The notes below the pieces were generated by a model. It did not search any database, was not told the origin of the DNA, and worked only from the letters and a program-made list of their open reading frames with translations. DNA of 54,294 bases from a virus (taxonomy: Duplodnaviria; Caudoviricetes): IMG/VR virus record IMGVR_UViG_3300033153_010346, positions 1 through 54,294 of that record. One strand, given 5' to 3'. The stretch's first letter is position 1. Each line of letters begins with the position of its first letter. Below are positions 3,613-11,377 of this stretch, one piece after another. The position numbers were made by a program, and so were the translations under genes.

Positions 3613-3695
3613 GCTCCCGTGGCGGAATTGGCAGACGCGCTAGTCTTAGGAACTAGTCTTTCGGGGTGTAGGTTCGAGTCCTACCGGGAGTACCA
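3613..3695 (+). tRNA. tRNA-Leu(TAG)
   Basis: cloverleaf, loop CT-TAG-GA, variable arm, GTTCGAGTC, CCA. Confidence 0.95.
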
Positions 3696-4965: not shown

Positions 4966-5235
4966 ATGGGAATGAGGCAAAACGAGAAAACATTTGAGAA
5001 GTTGTTTGAAACCGAAACACGTTATCAAATATACCCTCGAAACTGGTACTGCTTTGACCTAGGTATAGGGGACCATACTCTACTAATGCCAAGAGTTTCC
5101 CATAACCCCTTATTTATGTTGTTTATCGCGGCATCGGCATTTAAAGGTTGGGGGAGGTTCATAAGCATGGGCTCAAACCTTACTAGAAAATTTGCCCTCG
5201 TATCGGCTCTGGCTTCTAACCAGGAGAAACCGTAA
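4966..5235 (+). CDS. small hypothetical protein (paralog family), 3' end overlaps atypical tRNA
   Basis: GAGG RBS; NPLFMLFIAAS. Confidence 0.5.
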   Translation: MGMRQNEKTFEKLFETETRYQIYPRNWYCFDLGIGDHTLLMPRVSHNPLFMLFIAASAFKGWGRFISMGSNLTRKFALVSALASNQEKP

Positions 5236-5273
5236 CTGGACACATGTGGGTTCGACTCCTACCGAGGGTACCA
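5194..5273 (+). tRNA. atypical tRNA-Arg(TCT)-like RNA lacking a normal D arm
   Basis: GCCCTCG/CGAGGGT-A-CCA, T arm GTGGG-TTCGACT-CCTAC, TCTGG-CTTCTAA-CCAGG arm only 7 nt after the acceptor strand. Confidence 0.75.
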
Positions 5274-7481: not shown

Positions 7482-7488
7482 TTTATAT

Positions 7489-7561
7489 TCCTTCGTCGTC
7501 TAATTGGAGAGGACATTTGGCTACGAACCAAAAAATGCGGGTTCGATTCCTGTCGAGGGGA
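7489..7561 (+). tRNA. tRNA-Arg(ACG), no encoded CCA
   Basis: TTTGG-CTACGAA-CCAAA arm. Confidence 0.88.
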
Positions 7562-7580
7562 TTTACATAAAGGGTAATAT

Positions 7581-8718: not shown

Positions 8719-8793
8719 GCTAGGATAGTGTTAGCAGTAGCACGTCTGGTTGTGGGCCAGAAAGGCTTGGTGCAAGTCCAGGTCCTAGTACCA
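8719..8793 (+). tRNA. tRNA-His(GTG), A73, no genomic G-1
   Basis: TCTGG-TTGTGGG-CCAGA arm, CCA; T-loop TGCAAGT. Confidence 0.85.
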
Positions 8794-8818: not shown

Positions 8819-9361
8819 ATGAATGTAATGGTGGATTTGGAAACCATGGGAGTAGACGATTCAGCGGCTATTGTTTCAATCGGGGCTGTTGAATTTAACA
8901 AGGATAAGATAGGTTCGGAGTTTTATCGTAACATCACCTTGTACTCTAATCAAAGTCGAGGTAGAACGTACACACCTAGTACAATCGAATGGTGGCTTAA
9001 ACAAGACAAGGCGGCTCAGGAAGGTTTGTTCAATCCTACACCTGTTGATCTCTTAACTGCTTTGAAAGACTTCCAGAAGTATGTAACTGGGGTGTTAAGT
9101 AAGAATGATGGTATGTGGGCAAATGGAGTAACATTTGATCTAATTATCCTAAGCCATGCCTTTAAAGCCATGAATGTGAAAAAACCTTGGCATTTCCGAA
9201 ATGAGTGTTGCGTTAGACCACTACGTAAGATTGGTTACTTGGTTGGCCTGAAATATGAAGATTATTATGGAGAAGGTGTAGCTCACAACGCTTTGGACGA
9301 TGCGAAGCTACAAGCGAAATTTGTTCAAGATTTTATTCGTAAAATGGAGAGCAATAAATAA
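8819..9361 (+). CDS. DEDDh 3'-5' exonuclease (Rv2179c/ExoVIII-like)
   Basis: VMVDLETMG, WANGVTFD, AHNALDDA motifs. Confidence 0.85.
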   Translation: MNVMVDLETMGVDDSAAIVSIGAVEFNKDKIGSEFYRNITLYSNQSRGRTYTPSTIEWWLKQDKAAQEGLFNPTPVDLLTALKDFQKYVTGVLSKNDGMWANGVTFDLIILSHAFKAMNVKKPWHFRNECCVRPLRKIGYLVGLKYEDYYGEGVAHNALDDAKLQAKFVQDFIRKMESNK

Positions 9362-10831: not shown

Positions 10832-11377
10832 ATGGCAGCGGAACGACAATTTGAGCTTGATTCACACCATTTGCTTAGATACAACTTTGCTATGTCACAT
10901 TGTTTTGGTAGTGTGTTAGACATTGCTTGTGGCTATGGGGAAGGTTCTAACATGTTGTCTACATCAACTAAGATAACAAACGTTGTTGGTGTAGATATAG
11001 CACAAGATGTAGTAGATGTTGCAAGTAAACGATATCCTAATATCATTTTTGAATGTGCTAACTTATTAAACTATAAAGGACAATTTGACTCAGTAGTTAG
11101 CTTTGAAACAGTTGAGCATATTAAAGATTTCAAAAAAACAAAGCAACAATTAAAAAGTCTACTTAAACCAAAAGGGTTATTAATTTTTTCAGTGCCCGCT
11201 AACGAATCAGAAGGAACCAACCCGCATCATGTTGTGTGGGATCTAACACAAAATGATTTTGAGGAATTTTCCGAATGTCATTTTTTTCATCAAACCTCAA
11301 ATTTTCTTATAAAAGAAACGTTTGATGAAGTAAGCAGTGTAATTTATAACCTTATTGGAATATATATTAACAAGTAA
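10832..11377 (+). CDS. class I SAM-dependent methyltransferase
   Basis: VLDIACGYGEG, FDSVVSFETVEH, LKPKG. Confidence 0.85.
   Translation: MAAERQFELDSHHLLRYNFAMSHCFGSVLDIACGYGEGSNMLSTSTKITNVVGVDIAQDVVDVASKRYPNIIFECANLLNYKGQFDSVVSFETVEHIKDFKKTKQQLKSLLKPKGLLIFSVPANESEGTNPHHVVWDLTQNDFEEFSECHFFHQTSNFLIKETFDEVSSVIYNLIGIYINK

Follow-up and report, generated by a model that had tools for sequence, protein, structure and literature searches.

The virus contig IMGVR_UViG_3300033153_010346 of the IMG/VR database, considered here over its whole length of 54,294 bases (the window), derives from a tailed phage and encodes a DNA polymerase, a large terminase, a portal protein, and tail genes. The record is estimated to be 46% complete and has a G+C content of about 39%. 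It also carries an array of transfer RNA (tRNA) genes that lie on the same strand, and ARAGORN identifies 23 tRNAs in the window between positions 3613 and 12682. One further element of this array, located at 5194-5273 on the plus strand, is not among them and is the subject of this work. This element displays the features of a tRNA, with a 7-base-pair acceptor stem, a T arm, and an anticodon arm of 5 base pairs and a 7-nucleotide loop that includes U33 and a purine at position 37. A D hairpin is absent, and the gap from the acceptor to the anticodon stem measures just 7 nucleotides (5201-5207). As discussed below, comparisons with related sequences suggest that 5194-5273 is a working elongator tRNA-Arg(UCU) of the phage, built on a non-cloverleaf scaffold in which the strands of the D domain are swapped and the L-shape is preserved. 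The probability of this reading is estimated at about 0.75.

The segments of the gene are compiled in Table 1. Its secondary structure is best described as a putative three-way junction, in which the acceptor stem and the T arm are canonical and a 3-base-pair enclosing stem would extend the anticodon arm and replace the D stem. The strand that would supply D-stem positions 10-12 and D-loop positions 14-21 is apparently placed after the anticodon arm, from where it would feed the T stem directly. The original prediction, which was made from the letters of the window alone, had described an intact acceptor stem, A73-CCA, a T arm, a 7-nucleotide anticodon loop, a CGG segment able to pair with a downstream CCG, and a GG dinucleotide beyond it, and each of these elements is present where it had been placed.

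Table 1. Segments of the rewired tRNA gene, with proposed equivalents in canonical tRNA numbering
Feature	Position	Strand	Remarks
Acceptor stem, 5' strand (positions 1-7)	5194-5200	+	Pairs with 5263-5269; 7 pairs, including G1.U72
UAU connector	5201-5203	+	Probable U8 and A9, then a U that may lie opposite U 5233
Enclosing 3-base-pair stem, 5' strand, CGG	5204-5206	+	Would match D-stem positions 23-25 by strand polarity
C at the place of position 26	5207	+	
Anticodon arm	5208-5224	+	Stem 5208-5212/5220-5224; 7-nucleotide loop 5213-5219; anticodon UCU 5215-5217
Linker	5225-5229	+	First base opposite C26, followed by GAAA; forms a bulge that separates anticodon stem and enclosing stem
Enclosing stem, 3' strand, CCG	5230-5232	+	Complementary to CGG 5204-5206; would match D-stem positions 10-12
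D-loop-like single strand, 13 nucleotides	5233-5245	+	Runs directly into the T stem
Contents of the D-loop-like strand	5233-5245	+	U, A14-like and A15-like bases, GG 5238-5239, A20-like base 5240, U48-like base 5245
T arm	5246-5262	+	Stem 5246-5250/5258-5262; 7-nucleotide loop 5251-5257 of the TTCGA type
Acceptor stem, 3' strand, and 3' end	5263-5273	+	Acceptor strand 5263-5269; discriminator A 5270; encoded CCA 5271-5273

Homologous sequences preserve the enclosing stem while changing its bases. All three pairs form in 84 of 84 unique Arg-type sequences, which contain 16 different 3-base-pair combinations, and the stem is also fully paired in 140 of 140 unique Ile-type sequences. Changes on both sides occur at all three pairs in either alignment (in the Arg-type one, in 42, 21, and 12 of the 84 sequences). 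Subjected to homolog covariance models and a covariation test, the CGG/CCG pairing, which had been proposed from a single sequence, is borne out as a conserved helix. Over the whole structure, 95% of the pairs form in the Arg-type alignment (84 rows), compared with 62% in shuffles and 36-48% when the partners are slid; the Ile-type alignment (140 rows) reaches 93.3%, and slid controls over both alignments give 35-49% pairing. RNAalifold predicts the enclosing stem de novo, and the minimum-energy fold of the window gene as a single sequence contains it as well.

Compensatory changes are present in all four helices. The 7 acceptor-stem pairs are 98% paired in the family, with both-side changes at every pair, and the four inner pairs of the anticodon stem covary among the 84 Arg-type sequences. 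The outer anticodon-stem pair (27:43) is non-standard in 65 of the 84 Arg-type sequences and in all 140 Ile-type sequences, the alignment rows reading U.U; in the window gene it is U.G. This pair adjoins an invariant C at position 26. On its other side, the enclosing-stem pair closest to the anticodon stem usually combines a 5'-strand C with a 3'-strand G (72/84 and 123/140 sequences), and the window copy has the reverse orientation. The segments between helices are conserved, too. The TAT connector and the C at position 26, both left unfixed by the search pattern, occur in all 84 Arg-type sequences. A relaxed structural search over all collected loci yielded 244 unique hits, of which 237 have the connector and 235 a linker of one base followed by GAAA. 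The 21 nucleotides between the anticodon and T stems have no hairpin of their own in the consensus.

Covariance models built on these alignments separate the family from other tRNAs. The Arg-type model scores members at 37.6-96 bits and ordinary tRNAs at no more than 31.6 bits (over 804 kb). A second model, for which only Ile-type sequences were used, with the window and all Arg-type rows except L006 left out, scores 5194-5270 at 77.1 bits (E 6.6e-20), compared with 22.5 bits for the best ordinary tRNA of the window. Membership of the gene in the family is therefore independent of the window.

The rewired layout was found in at least 306 instances in 300 loci, which were gathered from IMG/VR scans, GenBank phages, and prokaryote genomes. 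IMG/VR was scanned with three patterns, which yielded 96, at least 118, and at least 119 stretches, and the third of these left the stem, the anticodon, and positions 20, 48, and 73 free. By blastn against GenBank phages, the layout is shared by Streptomyces and Microbacterium phages; a five-way alignment includes the Arg anticodons UCU, UCG, CCU, and ACG, exhibits compensatory changes in the CGG/CCG stem, and loses conservation at both tRNA termini. Cultured carriers comprise many Streptomyces phages (Stanwilliamsviridae), Microbacterium phages, Rhodococcus phage Peregrin, and Vibrio phage 424E50-1, the last with a variant that has a 12-nucleotide linker. Mildred21, Yaboi, and EGole are among the Streptomyces carriers. 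Conserved homologs, on whose existence the original prediction had made itself depend, are thus known in the hundreds, in phages of unrelated hosts.

The same layout is rare among cellular genomes. The first pattern, run over one genome per species for 185,579 prokaryote species, gave 8 stretches. Four of the six that were examined are dense tRNA arrays on contigs of metagenome-assembled genomes (MAGs), with 13 to 27 tRNAs in a few kilobases, and one lies on a contig of the isolate Mesorhizobium sp. Root552. Because only 8 stretches emerged among prokaryotes, the family is considered overwhelmingly viral. A blastn search with the window tRNA gave no match in all complete E. coli genomes and PLSDB plasmids. 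The Mesorhizobium sp. Root552 contig (L101:2737-2811) harbors a divergent UCU member with a UAC connector and an AAA linker; this member has only a single further tRNA within 8 kb and may belong to a prophage or to the chromosome. On a Bdellovibrionales-labelled MAG contig with a dense tRNA array (L106:5003-5093), ARAGORN calls a tRNA whose anticodon comprises two bases and whose type it leaves undetermined.

One base of the D-loop-like strand tracks Arg or Ile identity. According to Table 1 of Giege and Eriani 2023 (PMC9976931), the bacterial Arg identity set consists of A20, C35, U or G36, and A, G, or U73, and the bacterial Ile set of U20, A73, A35, and U36. The window gene possesses the bases of the Arg set as that table gives it, namely A 5240 directly after GG, C 5216, U 5217, and A 5270, where A 5240 would correspond to structural position 20. 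Across the family, GG is followed by A in all 71 Arg types and by U in 132 of 135 Ile types and all 8 CAU types. The discriminator is A in all 143 Ile and CAU types, and in the Arg types it is G (44), A (23), or U (4); among the 84 Arg-type sequences of the alignment, the counts are G 40, A 37, and U 7. The same association holds for the 76 unique sequences first fetched by the third scan, in which 64 of 64 Ile types combine U with A73 and 9 of 9 Arg types have A.

A further signal comes from the third base of this strand and the base that precedes the T stem. In the 140 Ile-type sequences, these two bases are A:U in 65, G:C in 62, G:U in 3, and other combinations in 10, a covariation which, as read from the alignment, is the behavior of an R15:Y48 pair. 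U8, the A14-like base, GG, and the T-loop motif do not vary across the family, some of them having been fixed by the search patterns. The proposal that a D-loop-like segment lies 3' of the anticodon arm gains support from these observations, in that GG is invariant, the base that follows it tracks identity, and the third base covaries like 15:48.

The anticodons of the family are confined to few identities. The 244 unique hits of the relaxed structural search comprise 106 Arg, 130 Ile, and 8 CAU anticodons and nothing else. The Ile and CAU members are spread over many phage contigs (loci L109-L318, e.g., L131:4779-4855 on the minus strand), with UAU in 97, GAU in 33, and CAU in 8. CAU members may be either Met tRNAs or lysidine-dependent Ile tRNAs. 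A single instance of a CTT anticodon was treated as a register artefact, as it is absent from the relaxed structural search. A single base distinguishes UCU (Arg) from UAU (Ile); together with the switch between A and U after GG, this difference implies a short path between the two identities. In a FastTree tree of 223 sequences with the identity columns masked, the Arg, Ile, and CAU labels change 13 times, compared with about 75 under shuffling (five of 200 shuffles). Given the short alignment and the lack of support values, this rough tree is used just for class clustering; on it, the three classes appear to cluster.

These observations can be assembled into a model of how the scaffold may preserve the L-shape. 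In the enclosing stem, the 5' strand leads straight into that of the anticodon stem and would thus stand for D-stem positions 23-25, with the 3' strand standing for positions 10-12. The predominance of a C/G pair next to the anticodon stem is consistent with how C25 and G10 are arranged. Expressed in canonical numbering, the chain would proceed from 9 to 22-25, 26, the anticodon arm, 44, the GAAA bulge, 10-13, 14-21, approximately 48, and finally 49. The canonical joins 9-10, 21-22, and 48-49 would accordingly be replaced by 9-22, 44-(GAAA)-10, and 21-(2 nucleotides)-48-49. The enclosing stem is predicted to stack on the anticodon stem, with five layers from the anticodon stem, one from C26 and the first linker base, three from the enclosing stem, and possibly one from a U.U pair. 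The resulting total of about ten layers would equal that of a normal stack of D stem and anticodon stem.

From the top of this stack, the chain would leave as a D loop does and enter the T stem through the 48-like base. U8 would meet A14, base 15 would pair with base 48, GG would dock on the T loop, and base 20 would sit in the variable pocket. Arginyl-tRNA synthetase (ArgRS), which would read A20, C35, U36, and A73, as well as EF-Tu and the ribosome, would thus encounter a normal L-shape. The same scaffold would serve the other Arg anticodons and, with U20 and A73, Ile (UAU, GAU) and CAU tRNAs. From the pattern of anticodons and identity bases, the rewired tRNAs are predicted to be expressed, charged, and used in decoding.

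The main alternative is a D-armless tRNA with a long, floppy variable region, which would lack a D-loop/T-loop core, adopt a Y or boomerang shape, and still be competent for translation. The Rfam tRNA model (RF00005) can be taken to portray such a molecule, as its alignment to 5194-5270 deletes the D arm (4 nucleotides against 15 model positions) and inserts 18 nucleotides in the variable region. However, the family retains GG and a canonical TTCRA T loop, whereas G19:C56 and the T-loop motif are lost in the mitochondrial tRNA that is the relevant precedent (PMC9427863). In addition, the 15:48-like pair covaries, and the base after GG differs between Arg and Ile types in the way expected of position 20 in a docked D loop. 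A floppy molecule is hence regarded as unlikely. A tRNA-shaped RNA that does not decode, acting instead in regulation, as a processing signal, or as a decoy of host enzymes that cut tRNAs, might explain why standard finders miss these genes. Such roles would not account for anticodons that are restricted to Arg, Ile, and CAU and accompanied by matching identity bases and discriminators, for a 7-nucleotide loop with U33 and A37, for the CCA encoded in 47 of the 84 Arg-type sequences, or for the occupation of anticodon slots that are otherwise empty in the surrounding arrays, and a non-decoding function is deemed quite improbable.

The remaining explanations concern how the gene relates to a cloverleaf. 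Its segment order departs from the canonical one, as it does in the permuted tRNA genes of the red alga Cyanidioschyzon merolae, which are reportedly circularly permuted as wholes and restored to normal tRNAs by processing. In the window gene, by contrast, it is an internal segment that is displaced and the ends are normal; the acceptor strands occur in their usual order on one strand, the 3' half does not lie upstream of the 5' half as in permuted or split genes, and no bulge-helix-bulge motif is evident. A cloverleaf could be obtained solely by moving an internal segment, and we know of no mechanism that does so for a tRNA. The junction bases (UAU, C26, and the linker) are, moreover, conserved as though they were used unchanged. 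Cutting and rejoining of a precursor to give a normal cloverleaf is therefore very hard to sustain as an explanation. A decayed pseudogene whose complementarity arose by chance would agree with the missing ARAGORN call and with an Rfam score that is marginal (31.6 bits for 5194-5270 against a gathering cut-off of 29). It is already contradicted by hundreds of conserved homologues with compensatory changes in four helices in phages of unrelated hosts, and is scarcely credible.

Several observations weigh against the proposed strand-swapped elongator tRNA or restrict its details. The 15:48-like pair is broken in 10 of 140 sequences, and one member with an Ile anticodon (L006) has A after GG. The usual U.U at the outer anticodon-stem pair leaves 4 standard pairs, and divergent members have linkers of 3 to 12 nucleotides without GAAA. 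Most sequences were gathered by patterns that fix some motifs, and the conservation of GAAA, UA, and GG is partly by design. The energy of the single-sequence fold is no better than that of shuffles (z -0.09) and is hence given no weight. The three-dimensional arrangement is modeled on analogy and covariation. Redundancy does occur, as Microbacterium phage Zooman has a normal Arg(ACG) tRNA beside a rewired ACG copy. Finally, a normal Arg(UCU) gene could be encoded elsewhere in the phage, the record being only about 46% complete.

The composition of the tRNA array bears on what the gene may contribute. A tRNA-His(GTG) at 8719-8790 is missed by ARAGORN and scores 43.7 bits with the Rfam tRNA model, and it completes a 20-amino-acid set: the 23 ARAGORN tRNAs, tRNA-His(GTG), and the rewired gene together cover all 20 amino acids. 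The sole other Arg tRNA of the window has the anticodon ACG (7488-7562). The earlier claim that 5194-5273 is the only decoder of the AGR codons (AGA and AGG) in an otherwise complete set holds within this fragment of a record that is about 46% complete, with tRNA-His seen by Rfam only. AGA and AGG make up 179 of the 334 Arg codons in the 16 largest open reading frames (ORFs) of the window, and this large share indicates that the phage uses AGR codons heavily.

A similar pattern is seen in the collected loci, which carry 2,271 ARAGORN tRNAs of all kinds. An ARAGORN tRNA with the same anticodon occurs in the same locus for 0 of 117 Arg-type, 1 of 135 UAU, 4 of 45 GAU, and 3 of 8 CAU members, the loci being partial views of their genomes. 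The near-absence of tRNAs with the same anticodon suggests that rewired genes fill gaps rather than duplicate existing tRNAs.

Compared with a canonical class I bacterial or phage tRNA-Arg (RF00005), the rewired tRNA shares the 7-base-pair acceptor stem, the 5-base-pair T stem with a TTCRA loop, the 7-nucleotide anticodon loop, U8, the A14-like base, GG, A20, C35, U36, A or G73, and the encoded CCA. It differs in that it has no D hairpin, that its D-stem strands are split by the whole anticodon arm, that the D-loop equivalent leads to the T stem rather than back to the D stem, and that the junction is three-way instead of four-way. Mammalian mitochondrial tRNA-Ser(GCU) likewise lacks a D hairpin, and nucleotides in the D position extend its anticodon helix (PMC9427863). 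That tRNA, however, is devoid of a tertiary core and of G19:C56 and has a remodelled T loop, whereas in the phage family the signatures of elbow and core are all retained and the anticodon arm is followed by an additional D-loop-like strand. In contrast to the organellar tRNA-Ser(GCU), the rewired family is encoded by phages of bacteria.

Two other systems illustrate the latitude of bacterial translation. According to PMC11551756, the synthetic D-arm-less "mini HisT" of evolved E. coli indicates that a bacterial synthetase, EF-Tu, and the ribosome can use a tRNA without a D hairpin. As described there, mini HisT is artificial, lacks D-loop functions altogether, and required a pnp mutation to persist; in contrast, the phage family occurs naturally and seems to have retained D-loop functions. 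Allo-tRNAs, which are 8/4 or 9/3 tRNAs, constitute a non-standard group from metagenomes and phages, and some have Arg or Ile anticodons, as reported by Mukai et al. 2017 (PMC5389517). They are depicted there as retaining a four-arm cloverleaf with altered stem lengths and a long variable arm. Unlike allo-tRNAs, the rewired family is of the 7/5 type, has no variable hairpin, and has a rewired D domain.

The fold was not found to be described in the full-text literature searched, which included reviews on non-canonical tRNAs, subscription journals and supplementary files being outside its scope. Passages of PMC7609411, PMC5389517, PMC13092985, PMC8450103, and PMC7824862 do not mention it. A 2024 paper (PMC11551756) presents all known bacterial tRNAs as cloverleaves and arm length as the whole structural diversity of cytosolic tRNAs. 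The evidence supports widening the finding beyond a single unusual gene to a scaffold for Arg and Ile tRNAs that is widespread in phages; the large family, its service for Ile, and the usual U.U outer anticodon-stem pair go beyond what had been seen in the window alone. If the proposed architecture is correct, a natural and widespread family would demonstrate that the L-shape can be reached by another topology with the elbow and the identity signals kept. It would also offer an evolutionary test of which tertiary contacts matter, among them U8-A14, 15-48, G18G19 with the T loop, and position 20, and it may provide a new scaffold for engineered or orthogonal tRNAs. The question raised is why phages prefer a rewired scaffold for exactly two amino acids.

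The family also exposes a blind spot of tRNA annotation. ARAGORN detects 4 of the 306 rewired instances. For the Arg-type query, 47 of 48 GenBank rows have no feature under the match, and the 48th belongs to a record that is wholly unannotated; for the Ile-type query, 57 of 60 among the matches listed have none. Two copies are mislabelled, as tRNA-Phe(gaa) in Mildred21 (L001) and as tRNA-Leu(UUA) in EGole (L321), and in Vibrio phage 424E50-1 (L319) a hypothetical protein coding sequence is drawn across the rewired gene on the opposite strand. The expectation that standard tRNA finders would miss or miscall such genes has thus proved accurate, with nearly all GenBank copies other than those of Mildred21 and EGole being featureless. 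Because ARAGORN finds so few instances and GenBank is mostly silent or wrong, the Arg and Ile decoding capacity of phages is probably undercounted.

Whether the rewiring confers an advantage of its own is a separate matter. It is possible, though doubtful, that the rewiring is an adaptation, present in phages of many hosts, by which a previously undescribed Arg/Ile tRNA fold escapes factors that recognize the canonical D arm or core. The readers evaded could be host defence nucleases that cut tRNAs, decay pathways, or the phage's own attack on host tRNAs. Under such an adaptation, the fold would work on ordinary bacterial ribosomes, and ArgRS or the isoleucyl-tRNA synthetase (IleRS), as well as EF-Tu, would still be satisfied.

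Pfam searches with nine small ORFs of the window array gave matches for two only. These are the enzyme genes that lie inside the tRNA array, at 8819-9361 and 10832-11377, and they encode an Rv2179c-like 3'-5' exoribonuclease (Pfam E 1.3e-46) and an S-adenosylmethionine-dependent methyltransferase. In tblastn searches across the collected loci, the exoribonuclease, the methyltransferase, and two small ORFs that flank the tRNA were found in the window only; consequently, no conserved protein partner is seen. An 89-amino-acid ORF at 4966-5235 overlaps the first 42 nucleotides of the rewired tRNA and has its stop codon inside the D-loop-like strand. With neither a Pfam match nor a relative in the collected loci, it may be spurious. 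In some phages, endonuclease genes occur close to rewired tRNAs or their canonical neighbours. An HNH endonuclease gene in Mildred21 (L001:1-300) and an endonuclease VII gene in TunaTartare (L002:1-307) each end right where the rewired tRNA begins, and in Zooman an endonuclease VII gene lies just upstream of the neighbouring canonical Arg tRNA.
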